Shown here: piece by piece, positions 3,532-26,465 of the stretch
Position numbering within the stretch: position 1 is the stretch's first letter
Layout of the letters: the number at the start of each line of letters is the position of its first letter
Source: Candidatus Woesearchaeota archaeon
GTDB taxonomy: Archaea > Nanobdellota > Nanobdellia > UBA10117 > JABICX01
NCBI GenBank assembly: GCA_018692915.1
Contig: JABHLG010000004.1
Location: forward strand, 1 to 60,926
DNA length: 60,926 nt
Direction of reading: 5' to 3'
Notes under the pieces: model-generated
The model's input: only the letters and a program-made list of their open reading frames with translations
What the model was told of the DNA's origin: nothing
The model's database searches: none
Program-made: the position numbers and the translations under genes

Positions 3532-6500
3532 TTAGCAGAAGTCACCCAATCCCAACTGTTTAGTCTTATCTCTTCCGAAAACAGATTCAACTCTTTCATT
3601 CAAAAGTTGGATTGCTTGTCTAACAAAAGGTGAAATGCCATCATAACTTACTAAATTTAATGTTGCTGCTAAGTATTTCTTAACAGTTCCTTCTGCAATT
3701 GTAAAAACAATATTTCCTTTTTTACATGTAGAACAAGTTCCACTTAATGGAATTCGTCTGTAAATTGTATTACATGTTGTGCAACGATATGTTTGTTTTG
3801 TAAATTTTCTAAGATTACCTTTTATATCTCTCACAAAATGACCTTCTACAATTAATTGTGCAACTTTATCTAAATGAGATGCTCTTATCTTTGCAGCAAG
3901 TTTTAATTGTCCATCCATTTTTTCCATCATAGTTGCTAAAGATTTATATGCAGAATTTTTTACACCAACATTCATATTACTAACTGGATGAGTATAACCT
4001 AATCCCTCATATTGTTCAACTTTACCAACTCTATCTTTAATTTGTTCAATTTTAAAATCAGAAGGATGTTTAAATTCTAAAGCTCCTTCATATAATTCTA
4101 AAGGATATTTCCATACAGTATCAACATCAAAAACTTCATCATCAATCTCCTCAACATTTAATAATGTTGAAAGAACAAGTGGTGCATCCATACTTCTACC
4201 ACCCCGTCTATCTGGAAGATATTGCCTTGAGAAATTTAGAAAACCATCCATAACTAAAAATATCGCGGTTTCTTCACCATCTAAATCTCTTCTTTGTGCA
4301 TCATGCCAATAAGGATGTGCAAATCCTCCTTGTGTATGAGAAAAACCAATTATTCTGCCCACAATTCCTGCAGATGTATGTGGTGAAAGTCCAATAACTA
4401 AATGTCCAACTAAATCTTCTTTTTTCTTTACATTATAATATGGTTTTTGTTTGTAAATTGTTTGCAATTCTTCATCAATGAAGTTTGCAACTCTCGTTAG
4501 AACTTGACCTGCACCTTCATCAGCAGCATCAGTGCATAAAGGTAAAACAATATCTTGTGGAAATATTTCTATAATTTGATTTTCATCAACTAAAGGATTT
4601 CCTTTAATATCTTTTTCATATCCAAGTTCTTTTACTTTTTCTAAAGTAATTCCAATTTCTTTAATATTAAAATGAGTTATTCCTAACTCCGTCATATCAA
4701 AACGAATTGTTCCATCTTTATTTACATTTAAATTATATTTGGCTCTTAATATACCCTTACCAAAATATTCTACAAAATGATCTTTATTTGACATTCCCCT
4801 TACACCCTTTATTAATGGTTGGATTTGAGTTATGTTTACAACTTTTGATGCTGAAGAAATATATTTTCTAAGATCTATTTTTGATTTTTCAAATGGAACG
4901 GTTTCTTTATGACATTTATCTAATTTTGTTTTCTTTTTACAAATTGGACAAACTCGATACTGAACTGTATTTGTTTCGCATTTTTCGCATCTTGGATAAA
5001 TCGTTTGCTTTTCGCATTTTTCACAATAAAATACAGGCCATTGTGAAGTTATATGACCTTTATCCATAGCTGCATTAAAACTTCTAAGTCTTCCACCTTC
5101 TTCTCCAACAGGAAATAATACATGTGGTGTTCCCTTTAACTGACGGAGTTTTGCTTTCTCAGGTCTACCCATCCTGACACCAATAAATGTTCCAGACTTA
5201 TCTCTTTGTTTTATTTGAGAAATTTTATTTATACAGTCTAACCCATTTTCTCCAGAACTTTCTTGCTTCAGGAAAAAATCTAAAATCTTAATATAATCAT
5301 CTTCAAAGATAATTTTTTGGTTTTCTATTTTATGTGGGCATCCAATTATTTCTATAGTTCTTTTTAATTTATCATTTGATTCAAATTTTTTTGATAAATA
5401 CCATTTAACTAAATTATTATATTCTATTTCAGTAATATCTTTCCAATGTAATGTCCAATATGGATGAAATGGAACTTTTAATTTCAAAGAAATTTTAAGT
5501 GTGTCTTCAAAACTTGGGATTGTTTCGAAAATATTTTCTTTTAATTTTTCTGCTAAATCTCCCACAACATCTTTAAGATTAATTTTGTTTTCTTTCTCTG
5601 CTTTCTCAACTTCTAACAACCACCATTCTTCACAATAACCTGCTGGAACTAACGCTGTCCAATTTTCATAAAAATCTCCTCGTGAAATTAATATATCTCC
5701 AATAAATAAAATTTCTTTAATTTTATATTTTAATTTTATAGCTTGTTCTTCTGTTTCAATTCTAACAACAGAATCATCTTCTAATTTAACAATAGGTCCT
5801 TCAATTGAATCACACATTGTAAGTGCTGTGCTTTTACCTGGTCTTTCAACTCTTAGTTGTGTTCCTGTTGCAAGAAAATCTAAAAGAACTCTACTTGTTA
5901 CAGGTGAGATTGCCCAACTACCATCTCCAGTTAATCTACTCCGACCGTATCTTAATCTAAATCCTCCTGTTTCTAAAGGATACCCAAATACAGGTCTTCC
6001 CGCAACAATTTCAGATATATAATAATAATTAGGTACTAGTTTTGATTTAGATTCTTCTTTTTTAGTTGAGGATGCTGAATCTGTAGAACGAATTTTTTTC
6101 TTAAGTTTAAAATAATCTTCCATCCATAACCAATCAAGTCCAAAATCTGTTCCCCATTTTGAAAGTTGTCTCCAAACTTTATTATATTTAACAACACCAT
6201 CTGTAAGAACTAAAGCCAATCCACCCCTTATTTGATTTGTTTCAATTCGTGGTAAATTTTTATAATTTGAAACTTCTATTTGTGATGTTGGGTCTCCATT
6301 AATTTCAACAGGTATGTGTGGAATTATAAATTCCATTTCTTCTTTAGTTGGTTTATATTGCTTTCTTTCAAGTTTTTCATAATAATCTGTAACTTCTGTA
6401 TAATATCTAGAAATTTCATCTGGTGTCGGGTCATATTTTGGTAAGCCTTTCTTAATTCTAACATAATCTGCAATAACTAATGTAACAACTTGTTGTGATG

Positions 6501-6987
6501 AACCTGCGCCCCTAATTGGACCTGCAAAATAAAGTGAAATATAATTACCTTTTCCATCATTTCTAGGTCGAAGTTTTATTTCAGCTAAACCTTCTAATGG
6601 TGCTGAAACTACACCATTTGTAGTATAAGTAAGTCCTGTCCTTATACCAATACCAATAGCAAGTTCTTCATCTTCCATATCAAAGAATTTTCTATCAGAA
6701 ACTTCCCAAGCAATTGTTAATCCAACTCTCCAGTCACCCGCACCATATTTACCTTCAAGTTCACTTATTCTTTCAGCAACTCCTGAGTCAATAATTCTTG
6801 ATTCTATAGCACCAATAATTCCCTCAACTCTCTTTCCAACAGATTTTGCTAATAAAATATCTACTTTCTTTTCAGGATCATACCCAATTTCTCTAGCTTT
6901 GTTAGCAATATCGTATGCTTCTCTTGTTTTACTATCTATATTATCAAAATACGTTTTAATTTTAGGTGAACATACAATTTTATCCAT
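3532..6987 (-). CDS. polC: DNA polymerase II (PolD) large subunit DP2
   Basis: 1151 aa. Central zinc modules 'CEKCEKQ..CEKCE..CPICKKK', 'GLSPHTSAGIVGRIIGF', and a C-terminal 'CTTCNT...CSTCKKG'. Length and architecture match archaeal DP2. No intein is evident. Confidence 0.9.
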   Translation of the reverse strand: MDKIVCSPKIKTYFDNIDSKTREAYDIANKAREIGYDPEKKVDILLAKSVGKRVEGIIGAIESRIIDSGVAERISELEGKYGAGDWRVGLTIAWEVSDRKFFDMEDEELAIGIGIRTGLTYTTNGVVSAPLEGLAEIKLRPRNDGKGNYISLYFAGPIRGAGSSQQVVTLVIADYVRIKKGLPKYDPTPDEISRYYTEVTDYYEKLERKQYKPTKEEMEFIIPHIPVEINGDPTSQIEVSNYKNLPRIETNQIRGGLALVLTDGVVKYNKVWRQLSKWGTDFGLDWLWMEDYFKLKKKIRSTDSASSTKKEESKSKLVPNYYYISEIVAGRPVFGYPLETGGFRLRYGRSRLTGDGSWAISPVTSRVLLDFLATGTQLRVERPGKSTALTMCDSIEGPIVKLEDDSVVRIETEEQAIKLKYKIKEILFIGDILISRGDFYENWTALVPAGYCEEWWLLEVEKAEKENKINLKDVVGDLAEKLKENIFETIPSFEDTLKISLKLKVPFHPYWTLHWKDITEIEYNNLVKWYLSKKFESNDKLKRTIEIIGCPHKIENQKIIFEDDYIKILDFFLKQESSGENGLDCINKISQIKQRDKSGTFIGVRMGRPEKAKLRQLKGTPHVLFPVGEEGGRLRSFNAAMDKGHITSQWPVFYCEKCEKQTIYPRCEKCETNTVQYRVCPICKKKTKLDKCHKETVPFEKSKIDLRKYISSASKVVNITQIQPLIKGVRGMSNKDHFVEYFGKGILRAKYNLNVNKDGTIRFDMTELGITHFNIKEIGITLEKVKELGYEKDIKGNPLVDENQIIEIFPQDIVLPLCTDAADEGAGQVLTRVANFIDEELQTIYKQKPYYNVKKKEDLVGHLVIGLSPHTSAGIVGRIIGFSHTQGGFAHPYWHDAQRRDLDGEETAIFLVMDGFLNFSRQYLPDRRGGRSMDAPLVLSTLLNVEEIDDEVFDVDTVWKYPLELYEGALEFKHPSDFKIEQIKDRVGKVEQYEGLGYTHPVSNMNVGVKNSAYKSLATMMEKMDGQLKLAAKIRASHLDKVAQLIVEGHFVRDIKGNLRKFTKQTYRCTTCNTIYRRIPLSGTCSTCKKGNIVFTIAEGTVKKYLAATLNLVSYDGISPFVRQAIQLLNERVESVFGRDKTKQLGLGDFC

Positions 6988-7099
6988 ACTCTGGCCTCAA
7001 AATCTTAATTTTTAAAGAATTGTTTATTTAAAAATCATTTAATATTTTCTGTATTGAAAACATAAGTAAACTTTAAATGCTTTTAGTTGCACACATAAG

Positions 7100-7423
7100 A
7101 TGAGCAAAAAACTCGGAAGAAAACCAAAAAGTGATATACGAGATGAAATGGTAGAACTTCTTTATTTCATGAAAGAAGCTTATGGTTATGAATTATATAA
7201 AAAATATTGTAAGGTTTATGATAAAAAAATATCAATGCGTTCTGTGTATTATCATTTAAATAAAGGTGTTGAACTTGGAATTTTTAATCTTAAAGAAATT
7301 CGTGATGTAAAGGGTGATTTTTCTTGGGGTAGTGGAGTTAAGCAAGTTATATTTCAATTAAGTTCTAATGCTCAACCTAAAATTTCTAAAGATGTAATGG
7401 ATAAAATTAATGCTTTAAAGTAA
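7100..7423 (+). CDS. small winged-helix DNA-binding protein, PadR-like
   Basis: 107 aa. The pattern 'AYGYELYKKY...SVYYHLNKGVELGI' resembles the PadR-type wHTH signature (hGYEl ... lY..L..Le..Gl). Confidence 0.45.
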   Translation: MSKKLGRKPKSDIRDEMVELLYFMKEAYGYELYKKYCKVYDKKISMRSVYYHLNKGVELGIFNLKEIRDVKGDFSWGSGVKQVIFQLSSNAQPKISKDVMDKINALK

Positions 7424-7446
7424 ATTTATTCACAAATTAATATTAT

Positions 7447-7473
7447 ACTCACACCCGTTCATTTCCTTTGAAG
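7447..7473 (-). repeat. ORB-like origin recognition box (left, inverted)
   Basis: The reverse complement reads cttcaaaggaaatgaacgggtgtgagt. It has a TTCnnnGGAAA dyad followed by a G-rich tail. Confidence 0.6.
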
Positions 7474-7664
7474 CTTCTTTTTCTCTTCAATCTTTACTTT
7501 TCAAATTTCTCATTTTATTCTAATTTGTTCTTAGTGTGTTTATTTTAATTGGAAGTGTTATATATTAATAAAATCATTAGATGAAAAAGCTAAAATTTTA
7601 TTATATTCTTTTCAATATTGTATATAATATATATATTTATTAAAATATATAATAATAATAAAGA
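7474..7664. other. AT-rich duplex unwinding element of the putative replication origin
   Basis: About 190 bp between the inverted ORB-like boxes. Positions 7560-7660 are almost pure A/T with (at)n runs. Confidence 0.55.
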
Positions 7665-7693
7665 CTTTCCATTAGAAATGAAGGAGTGAGAGT
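7665..7693 (+). repeat. ORB-like origin recognition box (right)
   Basis: ctttccattagaaatgaaggagtgagagt. The TTCCAnnnGAAA dyad plus purine/G tail matches the left box at 16 of 19 core positions. Confidence 0.6.
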
Positions 7694-7769
7694 GTTCTAA
7701 AATTTGTAGATAGTGTTTTTTTAATAATTCTATTTTTTTCTATATAAATATATATAAGCAGCATTTCTT

Positions 7770-9089
7770 TTGGAAAGTATGGTTGAAGAAAATTTATCTG
7801 AATTTACTAAAGAAGAAAATATAGATAAAATTGAACAAATAGAAATTAAAGAAGATAAAGTTGAAGTTAAACAAGATGAAGTTAAGGATGAATTAAATGA
7901 TTTTTTTGAGGAGTTTTTAGATAAAGAATCTTTATTTATAGATAAAATTGTTTTACAAGTTAAATATTTACCAGATATTATATTACATAGAACAAATCAA
8001 ATGAAACAATTAGCATCAATTTTAGCACCAGCTTTGAAAAATGATAAACCATCAAATTTATTTATTTATGGAAAAACAGGAACAGGTAAAACACTTTGTA
8101 TGAAACATACAATTTCAAAGATGAATGAAATTTCAAAAAAAAGAAATATACCTTTGAGAATAATATATTTGAATTGTAAGATGAAGAAAGTAGCAGATAC
8201 AGAATATAGGATTATAGCACAACTTGCTCGTGAGATTGGTGAGGAAGTTCCAATGACTGGTTTGCCAACTGATGAAGTTTATAATATATTTATTAATAAA
8301 TTAGAATCAAAAAAACAAACTATAATTATAATATTAGATGAGATTGACCAAATTGTGAAAAAATCTGGTGATGAAATATTATATACATTAACTAGAATAA
8401 ATTCTGAATTAAATAATGCACAACTCACTTTTGTTGGTATTTCAAATGATGTTAGGTTTATGGAGAATATAGACCCAAGAGTTAAATCTAGTCTTGGAGA
8501 AGAAGAATTAATTTTTCCACCATACAACGCTCTTGAATTAAAAGATATTTTAGAGAGACGCTCAGCTTTAGCATTCAAAGACAAAGTTATAGAAAATGGT
8601 GTTTTGCAAAAATGTGCTGCATATGCAGCACGAGAGCATGGAGACGCAAGAAGAGCTTTAGATTTATTAAGAGTTGCAGGAGAGGTAGCTGAAAGAGAAA
8701 ATTGTATAATTGTTGAGCCAAAACATATTGATATGGCAGAAGATAAGATTGAGAAATCAAGAGTTTTAGAAATTATTCAAACTCAACCAAAGCAAAGTCA
8801 AATAGTTATGTATTCAATACTTCATGTTTTAGATGAGAAAAAATCAGGTGAATTTGCTGAAACAGGAGAAGTTTTTGAACATTATAAAGAAGTTTGTAAA
8901 AGAACAGGTAATAATATTTTAACTCAACGTAGAATTTCAGATTTAATTTCAGAACTTGATATGTTAGGTATTATTAATGCAAAATTAATTTCAAAAGGTA
9001 GATATGGTAGAACACGTGAAATTTATATGACAATACCTATTGATATTTTGGAAAAAATAAGAGCAACTCTTGAATCAGAGTTATTTTAA
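7770..9089 (+). CDS. cdc6: Orc1/Cdc6 replication initiator
   Basis: AAA+ Walker A 'GKTGTGKT', Walker B 'IIILDEID', 'GDARRALDLLR' and a C-terminal winged helix. The track start 7770 is TTG. The first ATG is at 7779 and is the more likely start. Confidence 0.92.
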   Translation: MESMVEENLSEFTKEENIDKIEQIEIKEDKVEVKQDEVKDELNDFFEEFLDKESLFIDKIVLQVKYLPDIILHRTNQMKQLASILAPALKNDKPSNLFIYGKTGTGKTLCMKHTISKMNEISKKRNIPLRIIYLNCKMKKVADTEYRIIAQLAREIGEEVPMTGLPTDEVYNIFINKLESKKQTIIIILDEIDQIVKKSGDEILYTLTRINSELNNAQLTFVGISNDVRFMENIDPRVKSSLGEEELIFPPYNALELKDILERRSALAFKDKVIENGVLQKCAAYAAREHGDARRALDLLRVAGEVAERENCIIVEPKHIDMAEDKIEKSRVLEIIQTQPKQSQIVMYSILHVLDEKKSGEFAETGEVFEHYKEVCKRTGNNILTQRRISDLISELDMLGIINAKLISKGRYGRTREIYMTIPIDILEKIRATLESELF

Positions 9090-9094
9090 TTCTA

Positions 9095-10414
9095 ATGGAA
9101 AAAGCAGATAAAATAAAACAAATGCTAGAAAAAGGAATTGTTCCTACTGTTGATAATATTAATAATTCTAACAAAACTGGTGTTGATATTGTACATGCAC
9201 CAGAATATATACCACATAAAGTAAATGTTAAAGAATTTCATGAAGCTAATCGTGAAAAATTTACTACCATGAAAAATTTACTAATGAATAGAAGCGAACT
9301 TCAAAATGCCGTTTCTATTAGTAGAGCACCACAAATGGAAAGCAAAGATGTTACAGTTATTGGAATGGTTTTTGAAAAAACAAAATTCCCAACTGGAACA
9401 ATTCGTTTAGAACTTGAAGACCTTTCAGGAAAAATGGTAGCAATTATTTCAAAGAAAAATGAAGAATTATTAAAAAAAGCAGAATTCATCGCAAAAGATG
9501 AAGTTATTGGTTTTATTGGCGGCTGTTCAAAAGGAATATTTTTTATTAATGATATTGTTTGGCCAGATGTTCCACAGAAAAATTTACCAACAACAAAAGA
9601 AGATGTTTATGTGGCTTTTCTTGCAGATATTCATGTTGGTTCAAAGGTTTTTCTTAAGGAAGAGTTTGAGAGTTTTTTAAAATGGTTAAATGATGATAAT
9701 GATATATCTAAAAAAGTAAAATATATTTTAATGTGTGGAGATGTTGTTGATGGTGTTGGTATATATCCACAACAAGATAAAGAATTAGAAATAACTGATA
9801 TTTATGAGCAGTTTAAAGCACTAGCAAAATATATTAAACAAATTCCAAAAGATAAACAAATAATTATATCTGCAAGTGACCATGATGGTGTAAGGATTGA
9901 AGACCCAAGACCTAGGATTCCAAAACATTTAGCACCTGATTTATATGATGTCGATAATATTCACTTAGTTACAAATCCATCAATTATTAAACTTCATAAA
10001 GTTGATAGTTATCCTGGAATAAATGTTCTAATGTATCATGGAGATAGTTTTGATTATTATATTAATAATGTTGAAGCACTAAGACTTGCTGGTGGATATG
10101 ATAAAGGTTCTGAAGTAATTAAATTCTTTTTACAACGTAGACATTTATCTCCAACATATGGCGGACAAGAAGTTTTACCTATGAAACCAGACCCACTTGT
10201 TTTACACCAAATTCCAGATGTAGTTCATACAGGACATATTCACAAGAGCGACATTGGAACATACAAAGGAACAATTATGATATGTTCAAGTTGTTTTCAA
10301 GGAAGAACAAGCTATCAAGAGAAGTTAGGACATCATCCCGACCCTGGAAAAGTAATCCTCCTTAATTTAAAAAATATGAAAATTAAAATCCTAGACTTTA
10401 ATAAAGAAGTGTAA
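9095..10414 (+). CDS. polB: DNA polymerase II (PolD) small subunit DP1
   Basis: 439 aa. OB-fold region followed by calcineurin-like phosphoesterase motifs 'DIHVGS', 'GDVVDGVG', 'YHGDS' and 'HTGHIH'. It starts 5 nt after cdc6. Confidence 0.9.
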   Translation: MEKADKIKQMLEKGIVPTVDNINNSNKTGVDIVHAPEYIPHKVNVKEFHEANREKFTTMKNLLMNRSELQNAVSISRAPQMESKDVTVIGMVFEKTKFPTGTIRLELEDLSGKMVAIISKKNEELLKKAEFIAKDEVIGFIGGCSKGIFFINDIVWPDVPQKNLPTTKEDVYVAFLADIHVGSKVFLKEEFESFLKWLNDDNDISKKVKYILMCGDVVDGVGIYPQQDKELEITDIYEQFKALAKYIKQIPKDKQIIISASDHDGVRIEDPRPRIPKHLAPDLYDVDNIHLVTNPSIIKLHKVDSYPGINVLMYHGDSFDYYINNVEALRLAGGYDKGSEVIKFFLQRRHLSPTYGGQEVLPMKPDPLVLHQIPDVVHTGHIHKSDIGTYKGTIMICSSCFQGRTSYQEKLGHHPDPGKVILLNLKNMKIKILDFNKEV

Positions 10415-14691: not shown

Positions 14692-15465
14692 ATGAAAATT
14701 CTTTGTCCAGATAAATCAGAAAAGACTATTGAAGAATGCGCAGAATGTGCTAAGTGTTTCCCAAAACCAATTATGAGTATGCTTTTGAAAGGTAGAAATA
14801 GAAAAAAGAAACTCAATTCAAAGCCACGTTATGGTGTGACAAGATTAGTAGGTAATTGCTTGAGAAAAACCTATTATGACCTTACTGAAGAAGTTGCAAT
14901 GCCTTTAGATAAACTTTGGATATTTACACGAGGAACTGCAATACATGAGTTTGTTCAAAAAGAAATACCTGAGGCAGATAATGAAATATTTAAGGAGCTA
15001 ATTTTCCCAAATTTTAATGTTCTAGGTTTTATAGATGCAGTTCATGATGGTGCTTTGTATGAATTTAAAACTACTGCAAATATTCCACAAAAGCCACAAG
15101 ATGCACATATTTTGCAAGCTCAAGCATACTATTCTATGCTCGATGAGGCGCAGAGAGCTAAGGTTGAGAAAATACTTGTTATTTATTTTAGTATGCATAA
15201 AATAAAGGTTTTTGAGGTTCCTGCAAGGAACATTATACCTTATCTTGAAGCAAGAGGTGCAATCCTCACAAATTCTATTGAAATGAAAACTCCACCAAAG
15301 CGAGAAGAAGGTTATATTTGTAGTTATTGTGAACATAAAGATATTTGCTTTGGACATAAACTCTCTACACATAATCTCTCAAGAAAATCAGAAGATTTAC
15401 CAGTCTTATCTGAAAGTTCAGCTCAGGAACCTAAAACACCAAAGCAAGCAACTTTGGACGTATAG
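14692..15465 (+). CDS. Cas4-like PD-(D/E)xK nuclease with Fe-S cysteines (no CRISPR context)
   Basis: 'GFIDAV ... YEFKT' (D...ExK), 'QAQAYY' (QxxxY), one N-proximal Cys plus C-terminal 'CSYCEHKDIC' (Cx2Cx5C). There is an extra N-terminal CxxC pair. Confidence 0.7.
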   Translation: MKILCPDKSEKTIEECAECAKCFPKPIMSMLLKGRNRKKKLNSKPRYGVTRLVGNCLRKTYYDLTEEVAMPLDKLWIFTRGTAIHEFVQKEIPEADNEIFKELIFPNFNVLGFIDAVHDGALYEFKTTANIPQKPQDAHILQAQAYYSMLDEAQRAKVEKILVIYFSMHKIKVFEVPARNIIPYLEARGAILTNSIEMKTPPKREEGYICSYCEHKDICFGHKLSTHNLSRKSEDLPVLSESSAQEPKTPKQATLDV

Positions 15466-15554
15466 AGCACTAAATCTCTAATTTTAACAAATAATATGTA
15501 CAGTTAAGCATAATGAATTTCTGGTTTATACATAGACATAGCTAAATAATCGCG

Positions 15555-15734
15555 CTATCGGAAATGAATTTCCAATAGCTTTCGATAGACTGCGCTTAAG
15601 TAGGGGTTTCTAACGGAAATAAGGGGGTATCAAATGAAACACAGTTTCCATACGAAATAGGGGGGTTAAACAGTTAACAGTGGCAAATTCACTGTGTTCA
15701 GATAAATCGGAAGTCTATCGGAAAAGGGAAATAG
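15555..15734. repeat. cluster of ORB/iteron-like repeats with G-strings
   Basis: Direct repeats gtttctaacggaaataagggggt (15606-15628) and gtttccatacgaaataggggggt (15644-15666). Near-palindrome ctatcggaaatgaatttccaatag (15555-15578). A further ctatcggaaaagggaaatag lies near 15715-15734. Inverted aacacagt/actgtgtt at 15637-15645 and 15691-15698. Confidence 0.6.
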
Positions 15735-15762
15735 ATATATATGTTTAGGTTGTAAATTTTTT

Positions 15763-16236
15763 ATGGATGTTGAGGATGTTAAAAAACAGATAGCTGAATT
15801 GCAAAGTCAAGTTGACGCTTCAAAGAAACAAACAACTGAAGAGCGTTTAGCTAATATTGAAAAAGAGCTTAACGCAATGAAAGACCGCTATATTAGACTT
15901 CTTGAACATACCATAGAATCTAACGGAAATCGGAAATCGGAAACTTCCAATAGGATTTCCAAAGGAAGTCCAAATGTTCAGCTAGATAAATTTCAGCTCC
16001 TTATATTACTTAATCAAAGCAAAGCAGATACACCTGAATTTGCAGTGTCTTCAACTCAGCTAAAGCAAGCATTCTCAATAAACAAAACTGAGAGAACAAT
16101 TAGAGATAAGTTATCCACTTTAGAAGTTATGAATTTAGTAAGTTCAAGAGGACAAAAGCCAAAGTTATATTTTTTAACTCCAAAAGGCCTTCAAATAATC
16201 TCCCAGCAACAAAGAGGCCTCATGCAAACATTATAA
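15763..16236 (+). CDS. coiled-coil plus C-terminal winged-helix DNA-binding protein
   Basis: 157 aa. The N-terminal heptad-like region is followed by 'TERTIRDKLSTLEVMNLVSSRGQKPKLYFLTPKG' (wHTH-like). The CDS itself contains copies of the upstream repeat motif at 15919-15967. Confidence 0.6.
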   Translation: MDVEDVKKQIAELQSQVDASKKQTTEERLANIEKELNAMKDRYIRLLEHTIESNGNRKSETSNRISKGSPNVQLDKFQLLILLNQSKADTPEFAVSSTQLKQAFSINKTERTIRDKLSTLEVMNLVSSRGQKPKLYFLTPKGLQIISQQQRGLMQTL

Positions 16237-16956: not shown

Positions 16957-17042
16957 ATAAATTAAATAGCATATACAATATAGTTTTTATAATATAATAT
17001 ATTATAAATTTCTTAATTTAATTAGTATTAAAGGTGAGATTT

Positions 17043-17600
17043 ATGAATAAAAATGGAAAATATGCGATAGTTTTTGCAGTAGTTGTGGCTTGCGTTTTAT
17101 TAACGAGTATTGCTGTTGCAGGCCCAAAAGGTGGCGGTGGAGGACCAAAGCCAGAATGTAACGATAAGATTGATAACGACGGTGATGGATATACAGATAG
17201 AAAAGATGATGGTTGTAATGGTAAAAAAGACAATGATGAAAGCAACTGTGGAGATGGAACTTGTGAGGGTTCAGAATCCAGTGATAATTGTGTAGCAGAT
17301 TGCGGACCTAGCACATATTGCGGTGATGGAACTTGTGATGCAGATGAAGATTGTAGTTCTTGCTCATCAGATTGCGGAAATTGCAACTCATGTACAGATT
17401 CAGATAATGGTTATAATGTAAATACAAAAGGTACAGTATCTGGATATGACAGTGGAGAAACATATACTTATACAGATTATTGCACTACAAACGCTACTCA
17501 ATTATTAGAATATTATTGTATTGGAGATGTATGGAATAGTATACCATATAATTGTAATAGCAATGATACAACCTCTTGTGTAAATGGAGCTTGCATCTAA
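17043..17600 (+). CDS. secreted cysteine-rich protein (MopE-like DxDxDGDG motif plus CGDGTC repeats)
   Basis: Signal/anchor 'YAIVFAVVVACVLLTSIAVA', Gly run, 'ECNDKIDNDGDGYTDRKDDGC', then 'CGDGTC' twice. The track start 17034 is GTG. ATG 17043 is preceded by aaggtga. Confidence 0.7.
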   Translation: MNKNGKYAIVFAVVVACVLLTSIAVAGPKGGGGGPKPECNDKIDNDGDGYTDRKDDGCNGKKDNDESNCGDGTCEGSESSDNCVADCGPSTYCGDGTCDADEDCSSCSSDCGNCNSCTDSDNGYNVNTKGTVSGYDSGETYTYTDYCTTNATQLLEYYCIGDVWNSIPYNCNSNDTTSCVNGACI

Positions 17601-21547: not shown

Positions 21548-23281
21548 ATGAGTTGGAAAAATATTGAAAATAGTATTAATACTGCGTTTACAACAGTAAA
21601 CAGAAATGCGCTTGTTAAGATTGACCCTCCAACGGCAATTCTTGAAGGAAGGGACGGACTTATTGAGAAAAAAGCAGTAAGATATATTGAGAAAAAATAT
21701 GATTATTTATTAAGGGATAGTGATTTACCAACAAATTCTGATGATAGATTACTTGCACTAACTAAGTTAGCTTTAATTGATAATCAAGACCAGACTGTAT
21801 TTAACAAAGGACATTATCATTTTCGTATTAATGGAACTTTAGTTTTAAGTAATGATTATTTTAGACACCAGAGTGCAGAGTTTGCACAGTATGGCAATAC
21901 AAAAAGACTAAAAGATAATATTGAGGGAGATAATATAAATCAAATCAAATATTTTCTTCCACCCGAATGGCAAAAAGCACCACAATTAGCAGCAGAATTT
22001 CATTCAGCAATGGCTTTTGATAGTTATTTTATTAAAGAAATGATTGATGAGGGAATCCCCTCAAATCAAGCAAAACATATATTAGTAAATGCAATAACTG
22101 CTGAAATAGAATTAAGTGCAAATCTTAGGACCATATTTAACATTACAGGTATGAGAGATTGTTCTGGTGCGCAATTTGAAACAAATTATATTGGTAATTT
22201 AATTACATTAGCTACAAAAAACGCTACACCACAGTTAGCAAATTGGTTAGGTTCTCGATGTGTTCCAGATGATATTTGTAGAGAAAAATATACTTGTAAA
22301 AAAATAAAAGATAGAAAGGAAATATATACAAGTAATCTTGTAAAAGATCCATCTTCTGGGAAATTAATTGAAATAGACCATTTTGATAATTCATTATTAG
22401 AGAATATTATACATAAAAAACAAGAACAAATAGCAAATACAATTGCACCAAATTTGACTAATAATGACGCAGGATTTATACATAATATGAAGTTAGCAAA
22501 TCAAAAATATCTTCAAGCAAAAAAAGATGGCGTTTCATATGAATTTTCACCTAAAATTAAATTTAGATCTCACTTAAGAAATGAAAAAGGAGAACTTGAA
22601 TTAGAACCTATATTGGCTGAAAATGCAAATACTACATTTAAACGACTTCCATTAGAAGATATGCCAAGCAATTTTGAATTTAAAGAAGGTGAAATTGATT
22701 CTACTTTAGATAGTGTTGTTGATCAAAGACATTATGGTGTATTTGATACAGGAATTCTTGTTTATAATGTGGCAATTAGTAGAATGATGTTGCAAAGAAT
22801 TGCAAGACATAAAAATGGTTTAATGTTCTCAAGTCAACATCATACAGAACATGCGAATTTTGAATATGTTGTTCCGCCAGCAATTAAGAAAAATCCAAAA
22901 ATGTTAGAAAAATATCATACATTAATGTATTACCGTTCAGATTTATATGCTAGAGCTGTAGATGCGGGAATTGATATAAGTCAAGCAAGATATTGTATAC
23001 CAATTGCAGCAGGATGTAAGGGAACGATATCTCTGCGACCTAGAAATGCACTTACAACTGCATTACAAAGAGCTTGCTCAACCGGTTGGGCAGACAGTAA
23101 TTTTATGATGCAACTTACTGAAGAAACTAAAGATTATTATCCTCGGGCATTTAAAAAAATGGGACCAAAGTGTATGACTACACCAAATATTAGTTGTGCT
23201 AAAACATGTGATAGAAAAGATTTAGTTTTATCTGCTTACCGTGATAGAAATCCTGATGCAGTAAAAGAGTTAATGAATTAA
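21548..23281 (+). CDS. tandem (duplicated) ThyX-like flavin-dependent thymidylate synthase-fold protein, both halves divergent
   Basis: Half 1: 'FRHQSAEF..TKR' aligns with ThyX 'FRHRIASY..SGR', and 'IPSNQAKHILV...ANLRTIFNITGMRDCSGAQFE' aligns with 'VPREVARIVLP...[20 protein letters not shown]'. Half 2: 'IARHKNGLMFSSQ...FEYVVPP' and 'SQARYCIP...LRPRNALTTALQRAC'. Confidence 0.55.
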   Translation: MSWKNIENSINTAFTTVNRNALVKIDPPTAILEGRDGLIEKKAVRYIEKKYDYLLRDSDLPTNSDDRLLALTKLALIDNQDQTVFNKGHYHFRINGTLVLSNDYFRHQSAEFAQYGNTKRLKDNIEGDNINQIKYFLPPEWQKAPQLAAEFHSAMAFDSYFIKEMIDEGIPSNQAKHILVNAITAEIELSANLRTIFNITGMRDCSGAQFETNYIGNLITLATKNATPQLANWLGSRCVPDDICREKYTCKKIKDRKEIYTSNLVKDPSSGKLIEIDHFDNSLLENIIHKKQEQIANTIAPNLTNNDAGFIHNMKLANQKYLQAKKDGVSYEFSPKIKFRSHLRNEKGELELEPILAENANTTFKRLPLEDMPSNFEFKEGEIDSTLDSVVDQRHYGVFDTGILVYNVAISRMMLQRIARHKNGLMFSSQHHTEHANFEYVVPPAIKKNPKMLEKYHTLMYYRSDLYARAVDAGIDISQARYCIPIAAGCKGTISLRPRNALTTALQRACSTGWADSNFMMQLTEETKDYYPRAFKKMGPKCMTTPNISCAKTCDRKDLVLSAYRDRNPDAVKELMN

Positions 23282-25394: not shown

Positions 25395-25495
25395 TATTTT
25401 GCTGAGATTTTTTTAAAATGTTTGTGCTGATATAAAATAGATTTGTGTTCTACAAAACTACAAAACTTTATAAATTTGATTTATAGAGAAAATTC

Positions 25496-25636
25496 ATGCT
25501 AGTAAAAGTATATGGTCTGGCAGATTTAGCAGCAGCAGGAGTGTTGTATTTCTCAGATTTTGGTTGGTTAAATTGGCTTAAGATTATCATTATACTCGCA
25601 CTTGTGTTTAAAGGAATTCCTTCGGTGATGGCCTGA
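25496..25636 (+). CDS. 46-aa two-helix micro-membrane protein (paralog 1, below the ORF-track cutoff)
   Basis: ATG 25496 to TGA 25634-25636: MLVKVYGLADLAAAGVLYFSDFGWLNWLKIIIILALVFKGIPSVMA. It aligns with the next small ORF. Confidence 0.45.
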   Translation: MLVKVYGLADLAAAGVLYFSDFGWLNWLKIIIILALVFKGIPSVMA

Positions 25637-25687
25637 TGGAAAAAATTAAAATTTTCTACATCTTAACTCGCAAGGAGGCTCGCTAAG

Positions 25688-25819
25688 ATGCATATTTATG
25701 GAATAGTTGATTTGCTTGCAGCAATGTTTGTTCTAGCTTCAGATATTAGTACGGGATGGTTTAAGTGGAGCGTTTTAGGCATATTATTAATTAAAGGACT
25801 TCACTCTCAATTTGTATAA
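25688..25819 (+). CDS. 43-aa two-helix micro-membrane protein (paralog 2)
   Basis: ATG 25688 to TAA 25817-25819: MHIYGIVDLLAAMFVLASDISTGWFKWSVLGILLIKGLHSQFV. A ggagg lies about 12 nt upstream. Confidence 0.45.
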   Translation: MHIYGIVDLLAAMFVLASDISTGWFKWSVLGILLIKGLHSQFV

Positions 25820-25866
25820 AATATAGCTATTGTTCGGCCTGTGATAGAAAATTATTTAATATCATT

Positions 25867-26142
25867 GTGTCTTTATTCAGTATGCCAGAAGAAAAGAAGT
25901 TTTCAAGAGATATAGTTGGAAAAGTAATTGTTTCAAAATCCGGAAAAAAGTTCGGTGTTGTAGGTGATTTAGTTTTTGAGACACGTACAGGAGAGTTAAT
26001 TTATATTCTATTATCAAATGCAACGGAGTTTGCAGCAAACTTAAATCTTGAAACATCAAAAAACGGTGACTTAATGGTTCCATTTAGTTCGGTTTTATCA
26101 ACTGGCGACTTTGTTATAATTTCTGAAGAAGATATTATTTAA
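25867..26142 (+). CDS. PRC-barrel domain protein
   Basis: 'RDIVGKVIVSKSGKKFGVVGDLVFETRTGELIYILL' fits the PRC-barrel pattern. The track start is GTG; the first ATG is at 25882. Confidence 0.65.
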   Translation: MSLFSMPEEKKFSRDIVGKVIVSKSGKKFGVVGDLVFETRTGELIYILLSNATEFAANLNLETSKNGDLMVPFSSVLSTGDFVIISEEDII

Positions 26143-26156
26143 TTAAATTAATAGTA

Positions 26157-26465
26157 ATGGTGTTAAAAGAACTTATTGAGGGCTATCGTTTAGGTAGAGA
26201 TATGATTGATATAATTTTATCTATAGAAGACAAAGGATATGTTTTTCATCCAAATACTCAACAAATAGTTAATCCTGAAACACAAGAAATAGTTTCAGAA
26301 AATACTGAATATAATATTAAATGGAGTAAATTACGTAGCAATGGTTATCGCGTGATTGGTTCTTGTTTATATGATGTTATTCATTCACATAAATCTACCT
26401 TATGGAGAGAATATACTTCACCAAAAAGAAATATAAATATTAGTGAAATTAGCTCAGATTTTTAA
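26157..26465 (+). CDS. hypothetical protein
   Basis: 102-aa ORF in its own slot. No motif recognised. Confidence 0.45.
   Translation: MVLKELIEGYRLGRDMIDIILSIEDKGYVFHPNTQQIVNPETQEIVSENTEYNIKWSKLRSNGYRVIGSCLYDVIHSHKSTLWREYTSPKRNINISEISSDF

Follow-up and report, generated by a model that had tools for sequence, protein, structure and literature searches.

Introduction

In Thermococcales, Cdc6/Orc1 binds a conserved cluster of origin recognition boxes (ORBs) and mini-ORBs inside dp1, as established by chromatin immunoprecipitation and gel shift in a study that also defined TTCC and GAA as the core motifs of these boxes (Matsunaga et al. 2007, PMC1904270). In Haloarcula hispanica, oriC2D, an ORB-rich region downstream of cdc6E, restrains oriC2, probably by titration (Wu et al. 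2014, PMC3936714). Here we describe an array of ORB-like words in a stretch of 60,926 nucleotides from a Candidatus Woesearchaeota archaeon (GenBank assembly GCA_018692915.1, contig JABHLG010000004.1; hereafter the window). The array, 8 kb from oriC, lies in front of, and extends into, the gene for a 157-residue coiled-coil protein with a winged helix-turn-helix (wHTH) domain. We read this element, with middling confidence, as a non-origin ORB cluster: a conserved, predicted protein-binding array of origin-box words from which the adjacent wHTH gene would be controlled.

The array resembles the Thermococcales cluster in lying partly in coding sequence, in having an organisation that is conserved across relatives and, as we read it, in not being itself an origin (PMC1904270). 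It differs in that Cdc6/Orc1 binding was shown there and is predicted here, and in that the Woesearchaeota array covers the promoter and the 5′ coding part of a dedicated wHTH gene that is absent from Thermococcales, and contains palindromic half-boxes too. Like oriC2D, and functionally also like E. coli datA, it would be an additional set of initiator boxes in the neighbourhood of the origin that does not itself start replication; a role in holding or titrating the initiator is proposed. In oriC2D, however, 11 ORBs lie within 722 bp immediately behind cdc6, and the region has been examined genetically (PMC3936714), whereas the present array, described from its sequence, has two full boxes plus half-boxes, lies 6.5 kb beyond cdc6 and is tied to the promoter of another gene. 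Measured against the definitions in these two studies (PMC1904270, PMC3936714), it shows the features of a non-origin ORB cluster, namely ORB and mini-ORB sequences outside oriC, a few kilobases from cdc6 and in a conserved organisation. What sets it apart from the known clusters is that it always accompanies a gene of an unassigned coiled-coil wHTH family, and that boxes are also present in the linker codons of that gene.

A canonical archaeal oriC has the same box grammar (a TTCC...GAA dyad, a fixed spacer and a G-run), and the array boxes are 66% identical to the ORBs of the clade. Unlike an oriC, it has direct boxes and a GC-rich core, and it has neither a conserved unwinding element nor an adjacent initiator gene. 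The TubR/tubC system, AspA of pNOB8 and autorepressors of the MarR type likewise combine a small wHTH gene with a promoter-overlapping array of 10-11 bp direct and inverted repeats directly upstream, and their fold is similar. On the other hand, the protein described here has no partner NTPase gene, is predicted to carry a 50-residue N-terminal helix and a disordered linker, belongs to no sequence family, and has some boxes with ORB G-runs. WhiP and Cdt1 are related proteins with tandem winged helices. The sole likeness to WhiP, at Sulfolobus oriC3, is that a winged-helix protein is encoded beside repeats; the present protein has one generic winged-helix domain and gave no Cdt1 or WhiP match in any search.

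Organization of the array

The array occupies the gap between a Cas4-like nuclease gene and the wHTH gene and continues into the 5′ third of the latter (Table 1). The sequence strings that an earlier note on this DNA had reported were all found in place, including two 23-mers, GTTTCTAACGGAAATAAGGGGGT (15606-15628) and GTTTCCATACGAAATAGGGGGGT (15644-15666), the palindrome and a further copy of CTATCGGAAA at 15715. The same holds for the copies in the open reading frame (ORF), TCTAACGGAAAT at 15919-15930 and AACTTCCAATAG at 15942-15953, for the 297-bp length of the gap and for the 157-residue ORF with its peptide NGNRKSETSNRISKG. The two 23-mers, boxes A and B, are 78% identical, lie 38 bp apart and have the same orientation. 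With up to three mismatches allowed, a degenerate 23-mer pattern had no match in the 60.9 kb other than these two sites, and 100 shuffled sequences contained no match at all. The word CTAWCGGAAA occurs four times, always inside the same 375 bp, as against 0.08 copies expected in the whole window. Chance is excluded for these repeats.

The dyad of box B agrees with that of the oriC ORB, TTTCCATTAGAAAT, at 12 of 14 positions. Besides the two full boxes, there are at least five half- or mini-boxes; the half-boxes follow the consensus CTAWYGGAAAT and carry no G-run. One pair of half-boxes forms the palindrome, in which 15554-15565 pairs with 15568-15579 at 11 of 12 positions. Its offset is the same in L001, L002, L007, L008, L013 and L016 (L-numbers denote related loci that were compared with the window), and a variant form is found in L004, L005, L017, L022, L023 and L025. 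The degenerate inverted half-box that follows, at 15580-15591, is complementary to 15712-15723 in this window only. The AATTCACTG block downstream of box B is not accounted for by the ORB or half-box motif and may be the site of a further factor.

At the promoter end of the array, the half-box at -48 abuts a TATA-like element. A half-box is found at -47 to -60 in the window, L013, L016, L002, L004, L017, L022, L023 and L024, while L005 and L008 have the variant GTATTGGAAA, which was missed by the search pattern. The mRNA of the wHTH gene is probably leaderless or has a short leader, because no Shine-Dalgarno sequence is visible before its ATG. The earlier description of the gap as richer in GC than its surroundings holds for the core (15551-15730, 41% GC, as compared to about 30% for the window and 19-35% for the other gaps), but the gap as a whole reaches only 33%. 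A G-quadruplex formed by the G-runs was considered and rejected, as its loops, of 18-60 nt, would be too long.

Conservation of the array and the wHTH gene

The 157-residue protein has 17 close homologues, with 60-97% identity. The wHTH family is small, because a profile search of 1.84 billion cluster representatives returned 26 members only. In every locus that was recovered, the wHTH gene lies just downstream of a gap of 210-380 bp with the same boxes. Array and gene form a conserved module in about ten lineages of the Woesearchaeota type, with protein identities as low as about 25-35%, and always 1-8 kb from PolD/Cdc6. In a seven-lineage alignment, the near-invariant blocks are the palindrome, TTTCG..TA.AC, box A, box B, AATTCACTG and AATCGGAAGTCTATTGGAAAWGGGAAAT, the last just before the TATA-like ATAAAA. 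Counted from the ATG, the boxes have constant positions, at -208(+), -194(-), -153(+), -48(+), +157(+) and +181(-). The mean pairwise identity is 0.71 in the array, as compared to 0.49 at the third codon positions of the adjacent gene.

Distant family members, with 23-45% identity, retain the module despite different neighbours, which indicates that the module belongs with the wHTH gene and with the island of replication genes. The gene order is cdc6-DP1-DP2-Cas4-like-cupin-array-gene in L023, DP2-Cas4-like-array-gene in L024, and DP1-DP2-Cas4-like-isochorismatase-array-gene in L025, in which cdc6 is inverted and oriC lies 8 kb off. The L022 contig is short and covers the array and the gene.

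In L024 (4254-4606), the iterated half-box is CTATTGGACA instead of CTATYGGAAA, and it is present in 11 copies, often in pairs 11 bp apart. Both full ORB-type boxes of this locus, which read TGTCCAATAGAAATCAAGGGGTGTG, lie on the strand opposite to the half-boxes. From this comparison of half-boxes and full boxes, the iterated word is therefore the dyad half distal to the G-run.

Relation of the array boxes to the ORBs of oriC

The cdc6-proximal gap (7424-7781) is, as judged from its layout, a textbook oriC. The sequence between ORB-L and ORB-R (7476-7665) is 85% AT, with 95% AT in the best 60 bp. The ORB dyads face inward to this AT stretch and the G-rich tails outward. The oriC ORBs read GAAAT-N3-GGAGTG or CGGGTG. 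This architecture of inverted ORBs plus a mini-ORB is common to L002, L005, L013, L016 and L025. The suggestion that the ORB layout is matched more closely by the array boxes than by the cdc6-proximal ones was not borne out, as the conserved inverted pair around its 85-95% AT core itself sets the ORB consensus of the clade. The mini-ORB on the cdc6 promoter is built from the half-box word of the array, and L002 and L005 have ATTTCTAATGGAAG at its position. The listed TTG start of cdc6 at 7770 is probably too early, with 7779 the better candidate, because the alignment of Cdc6 orthologues begins at MxEEN, which matches 7779.

A 26-nt weight matrix was built from ten oriC ORBs of the window, L013, L016, L002 and L005. 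In the window, its highest matches are the two oriC ORBs, followed by box A (third, 13.2 bits) and box B (fourth, 12.5 bits), where the best match in random 61-kb sequences reaches 11-14 bits. The array boxes are the best non-origin matches in the window, L016, L002, L005, L004, L008, L017, L022, L023 and L024. In L013, box A is the best non-origin match and box B comes after one unrelated match. Among the lineages on which the matrix was not trained, the array boxes score 23.6 and 20.5 bits in L022, 27.3 and 18.4 bits in L024, and 33.6 bits in L025, in which the array box exceeds the oriC ORBs of the same locus (25.4 and 22.4 bits). Homologues of box A score 13.9-33.6 bits in L013, L016, L005, L017, L022 and L025 and fall below the listing thresholds in L002, L004 and L008; those of box B score 9.8-21 bits.

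The dyad core of TTCC plus GAA, the 13-bp mini-ORB core, is present in boxes A and B (TTTCTAACGGAAAT and TTTCCATACGAAAT), as it is in the oriC boxes (TTTCCATTAGAAAT and TTCAAAGGAAAT). In boxes A and B and their homologues, the G-string stands at a fixed spacing, with TTCC...GAAAT followed by N3 and then GGGGT or CGGGTG. Box A of L005 and ORB-L of the L016 oriC share the exact 14-mer GAAATAGACGGGTG. The half-box CTAWYGGAAAT is one ORB dyad half read from the other strand; for example, TTTCCATTAG of ORB-R becomes CTAATGGAAA. In agreement with the earlier note, the boxes are of the ORB type in their dyad and G-run at fixed spacing. They are also the top or near-top non-origin matches to the oriC ORB matrix of the clade, with scores in the window that lie within the range of the best chance match.

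Boxes within the coding sequence

The intragenic boxes are found at the same offsets (+157 and +181) in orthologues. Within the cluster, CTTCCAATAG is the half-box CTATTGGAAG on the minus strand, and ATTTCCAAAGGAAG is a mini-ORB-like dyad. The block encodes residues 53-69, which fall in the linker predicted to be disordered (predicted local distance difference test, pLDDT, below 50 at residues 55-68). The third-codon identity is 0.80 in this block, as compared to 0.49 elsewhere in the gene. The block also uses rare codons, namely CGG (2.0% of Arg codons), TCG (1.8% of Ser codons) and TCC (1.4% of Ser codons, used twice). In L022 the peptide differs (DSIGNRKEEFPLAISNSS), yet the DNA still reads CTATTGGAAAT-CGGAAA...ATTTCCATTAG-CC-ATTTCCAATAG. 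The recurrence of the motif words in the ORF, already remarked upon in the earlier note, thus reflects selection at the nucleotide level: the intragenic copies are selected as DNA, because third positions are conserved, rare CGG, TCG and TCC codons are used, and the L022 boxes are kept with another peptide. In several distant homologues, GNWK replaces the GNRK of the clade. Judging from the protein sequences of the GNWK homologues (P0019, P0024 and P0028), this replacement would be a change of CGG to TGG, which is exactly the C/T wobble of the box.

The 157-residue protein

In an AlphaFold2 model based on a 21-sequence alignment (mean pLDDT 80, and above 90 in the C-terminal wHTH), the protein is predicted to be composed of a long, coiled-coil-like N-terminal helix (residues 3-53), a disordered linker (55-68) and a C-terminal wHTH domain (74-156). 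The best Foldseek matches in the PDB were TubR (4asn, E 1.9e-4, template modelling score 0.76 over the target), the MarR family, SmtB/ArsR, AspA and STIV F93, and neither Orc1/Cdc6 nor Cdt1 was among the 50 matches listed. No Pfam family scored above threshold, as Replic_Relax reached 19.3 bits with a cut-off of 25.3 bits and was sub-threshold in 13 of 21 members. The search of PDB sequences returned coiled-coil noise only. The modelled fold suggests that the protein is of the TubR/MarR/ArsR/AspA structural class and a plausible dimeric site-specific binder, which probably dimerises through the long helix.

The idea of a stand-alone copy of the winged-helix domain of Cdc6 was examined and found unsupported: hhalign aligned the expected stretch, but with a probability of 0.14% and E = 0.43. 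An Orc1-, Cdt1- or Rep-like protein was likewise not supported, with no match by Pfam, PDB sequence search or hhalign or among the Foldseek matches listed. The structure comparison with initiator and Rep folds that the earlier note had proposed thus returned a single generic winged helix, with no Orc1-, Cdt1/WhiP- or Rep-like result. In L024, the putative recognition helix reads RTIMRRL, as compared to RTIR[D/N]KL elsewhere, and this change coincides with the altered half-box CTATTGGACA.

Function of the array

If the array is an ORB cluster that controls the wHTH gene, Orc1/Cdc6, encoded 8 kb away, would occupy the full boxes, as at the oriC ORBs and at the mini-ORB of its own promoter, while a dimeric wHTH protein would bind the palindromic half-boxes. 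The level of transcription of the wHTH gene would be set at the -48 box, through its occupancy and perhaps a bridge to the intragenic boxes, which lie about 205 bp farther downstream. The locus would in this way couple the wHTH gene to the availability of the initiator, and may also buffer free Orc1/Cdc6, and the array would not fire as an origin. A bolder proposal, which we consider doubtful, is that the wHTH family is an unrecognised ORB-reading regulator of replication initiation in DPANN archaea of the Woesearchaeota type. The protein would read the dyad half distal to the G-run in its own array, at oriC and at the cdc6 promoter, and would form a feedback circuit with Orc1/Cdc6. The array would then be both a datA-like initiator sink and the sensor by which the level of the regulator is set, and this sensor would be partly written in the linker codons of the regulator.

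Several points weigh against an ORB cluster read by Orc1/Cdc6. The scores of boxes A and B in the window (12.5-13.2 bits) are those of the best chance match per 61 kb (11-14 bits), and the assignment of these two boxes as ORBs would rest on their pairing, their conservation and the much better homologues elsewhere. The array boxes are without the GTGAGAG tail of the oriC ORBs, and they are more alike among themselves (about 19-20 of 26 positions) than they are to the oriC ORBs (about 17 of 26). Nor do they co-vary, lineage by lineage, with the oriC of their own locus (17.25 for own and 17.35 for cross comparisons, with 524 of 720 permutations as good), a result that is uninformative, as the ORB core is nearly invariant in the six lineages. 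The array boxes may thus form a class with a specificity of its own, for which the wHTH protein would be the sole reader, and the joint change of box and helix in L024, which concerns one lineage only, hints at this protein as the reader. Binding by either Orc1/Cdc6 or the wHTH protein is predicted from the boxes and by analogy with the described systems, and the TATA-like element as a promoter and the leaderless status of the mRNA are likewise predictions read from the DNA.

The main alternative is that the array is purely an autoregulatory operator, at which a wHTH dimer alone binds and represses its own leaderless promoter, perhaps with looping between the upstream and the intragenic palindromes. 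Orc1/Cdc6 would be uninvolved, and the ORB likeness would reflect shared ancestry or coincidence. An autoregulated operator had been among the options of the earlier note, and it fits the promoter geometry well, with palindromic half-boxes, a box that abuts the TATA element and boxes in the coding sequence of the gene itself. The array always accompanies the gene, whatever lies upstream (the Cas4-like gene, cupin, isochorismatase or an opposite-strand ORF); its boxes are a subclass of their own, without co-variation with oriC; the motif change in L024 coincides with the changed recognition helix; and the fold class is that of the repeat-array binders TubR, AspA and MarR. However, an operator leaves unexplained the G-run at the exact ORB spacing (GAAAT-N3-GGGGT/CGGGTG) in two boxes per lineage, the L025 array box that outscores its own oriC ORBs and the persistent linkage to cdc6/PolD, and the word of the half-boxes recurs as the dyad in the ORBs of oriC and in the mini-ORB at the cdc6 promoter. 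On balance, we regard a pure operator as somewhat unlikely. The same protein could also be a TubR/AspA/SegB-like adaptor that coats the array, as an origin-proximal centromere-like site, to segregate the origin region. The iterated boxes are arranged as in bacterial parS, close to oriC and both before and within the gene of the putative binder. In structure, the protein comes closest to TubR, which binds plasmid centromeres, with AspA also among the matches listed, and the paired boxes of L024, 11 bp apart, would lie on one helical face. However, no gene for ParA, SegA, TubZ or another motor NTPase is found beside the module in any locus examined, and the Foldseek similarities are of a generic winged-helix kind (E 1e-4 to 1e-2), which makes a centromere improbable.

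It had also been put forward that the array is a second origin of replication, which the wHTH protein would serve as dedicated initiator or cofactor in the manner of WhiP at Sulfolobus oriC3. The ORB-type boxes with G-runs, the position within the replication gene island and, in the window, the AT-rich flank that precedes the array (15466-15550, 76% AT) are in line with it. However, the full boxes are direct in every lineage, 37-118 bp apart in the window, L013, L016, L005, L017, L022, L023, L025 and L024 (both minus), whereas all six of the oriCs examined have inverted pairs. No AT-rich unwinding element is conserved: the core has 41% GC, the AT content of the best 60 bp is 0.80 versus 0.95 at oriC, and the AT flank is missing in L002, L005 and others, in which the end of the Cas4-like ORF adjoins the palindrome. 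The adjacent protein has one generic winged-helix domain and no Orc1, Cdt1 or Rep match, and no initiator gene (orc1/cdc6, whiP/cdt1 or rep) adjoins the array, so we consider an origin at this site very unlikely. The earlier idea of an integrated plasmid or virus remnant was rejected, since the chromosomal synteny is conserved across lineages and the wHTH protein has no phage, plasmid or PHROG match. Lastly, in AT-rich archaeal genomes an island of high GC content often marks an RNA gene, and the minus strand of the gap folds with a minimum free energy of -44 kcal/mol (z = -5.35; 0 of 200 shuffled sequences fold as well), as would a structured non-coding RNA. This good fold is explained by the inverted DNA boxes. 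RNAalifold over seven lineages gave only -9.5 (plus) and -7.1 (minus) kcal/mol, with a covariation term of about zero or positive, the mismatches in the palindrome arms favour different strands in different lineages, and no Rfam match, at the gathering threshold or at E = 10, and no tRNA (ARAGORN) was found. A long-range helix between 15580-91 and 15712-23 was rejected, as it is not kept in L002 or L005 and has no compensatory support. An RNA gene is accordingly the least probable of the explanations, hardly to be expected here.

Gene neighbourhood

The window is a chromosomal replication island of a Woesearchaeota-type archaeon, with PolD, oriC, Cdc6, Hef, a Cas4-like nuclease, dUTPase and ThyX. 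The coordinates of its features are collected in Table 1.

Table 1. Features of the window around the array and oriC (nucleotide positions; offsets in the remarks are relative to the ATG of the wHTH gene)
Feature	Position	Strand	Remarks
PolD DP2 gene	3532-6987	minus	
Conserved 107-residue ORF	7100-7423		between PolD DP2 and oriC
AT-rich gap	7424-7769		19% GC
oriC ORB-L GCTTCAAAGGAAATGAACGGGTGTGA	7449-7474	minus	reference set, outside the array; homologues in L002, L005, L013, L016, L025
oriC ORB-R TTTCCATTAGAAATGAAGGAGTGAGA	7666-7691	plus	reference set; inverted relative to ORB-L
Mini-ORB ATTTCTTTTGGAAAG	7763-7777	plus	between the cdc6 TATA box and the likely ATG at 7779
Orc1/Cdc6 gene	7770-9089	plus	Pfam Cdc6_C 5e-29, Cdc6_lid 6.8e-23, AAA_22
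PolD DP1 gene	9095-10414		
Presenilin-like peptidase, Hef, M50 peptidase			after PolD DP1
Cas4-like nuclease gene	14692-15465		
Array-bearing gap	15466-15762		297 bp
Palindromic half-box pair CTATCGGAAAT-GA-ATTTCCAATAG	15555-15578		inverted repeat; -208 and -194
TTTCGATAGACT, conserved TTTCG..TA.AC block	15580-15591	minus	degenerate inverted half-box; TTTC invariant in the seven-lineage alignment
Full ORB-type box A	15606-15628	plus	dyad TTTCTAACGGAAAT, AAG, GGGGGT
Full ORB-type box B	15644-15666	plus	dyad TTTCCATACGAAAT, AGG, GGGGT; 38 bp downstream of box A
AATTCACTG block	15686-15694		between box B and promoter-proximal boxes; TTCACT invariant in seven lineages
Promoter-proximal boxes AAATCGGAAGT-CTATCGGAAAA-GGGAAAT	15704-15732	plus	near-invariant in the seven-lineage alignment
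TATA-like element	15731-15742	plus	about 21-32 bp before the ATG; ATAAAA at the same offset conserved in the seven-lineage alignment
157-residue wHTH ORF	15763-16236	plus	
Intragenic box cluster, codons 53-69	15919-15968		CTAACGGAAAT (+), CGGAAAT, CGGAAAC, CTTCCAATAG, dyad ATTTCCAAAGGAAG
TctA, dUTPase, ThyX, dCMP deaminase, LonB			beyond the 157-residue ORF

Every related locus has, at the position of the ORF beside oriC (7100-7423), an equivalent of 106-107 residues. Neither Pfam nor PHROG gave a match for this ORF, and no homology was detected between it and the 157-residue protein; it may encode another small origin-associated DNA-binding protein. In L025, the gene adjoining oriC/cdc6 (6786-7256) encodes instead an acidic protein of 156 residues, which replaces the 107-residue ORF of the clade of the window and has a weak match to the histone fold (CBFD_NFYB_HMF, E 0.007). 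No ORB cluster like that of Pyrococcus and other Thermococcales was found inside dp1. A single ORB-like dyad, TTCCAACTGGAA, lies there at 9380-9395 (about +290), encodes a conserved PTG, and is kept in L002 and nearly kept in L005.

The Cas4-like gene, with homologues in L002, L005, L023, L024 and L025, encodes a stand-alone PD-(D/E)XK nuclease with a C-terminal Cys cluster. It is PolD-linked and nearly always lies directly upstream of the array module. In that part of the window which was annotated, neither a CRISPR array nor further cas genes came to light, and for this reason a role of the nuclease in replication or repair is suggested. Farther away, the ThyX homologue (21548-23281) has 577 residues with two Thy1 stretches, as compared to about 400 residues in related loci, and may be a duplicated or fused form. 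A 188-residue ORF (17034-17600), rich in Cys, Asp and Gly and with a signal-like hydrophobic segment at its N-terminus, overlaps a 122-residue ORF on the opposite strand (17018-17386); it has no Pfam match and is missing at the equivalent position in most related loci. A stretch of 1067 bp (25395-26461, 30% GC) has no ORF of 120 residues or more, and near its equivalent, related loci have several tiny ORFs (43-46 residues) and PRC-barrel genes.

Significance

To our knowledge, non-origin ORB clusters have been studied, among archaea, only in Thermococcales and Haloarcula, and we know of no experimental work on the control of replication initiation in DPANN archaea. The reading of the array as an ORB cluster and the operator would part at the oriC of the P0044/P0047/P0037/P0046 lineage: oriC ORBs with TGTCCAATAG would mean that the array motif tracks the ORB, and oriC ORBs with TTCCATTAG that it tracks the wHTH protein. 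The module, with about 420 bp and a 157-residue protein, offers a compact and conserved test case of whether non-origin initiator boxes regulate genes, buffer Orc1/Cdc6 or serve a second reader. It would also be a clean example of regulatory DNA written in the codons of a disordered linker, where rare codons are chosen and boxes are kept although the peptide diverges. Such intragenic boxes matter for annotation and for models of selection at the codon level.

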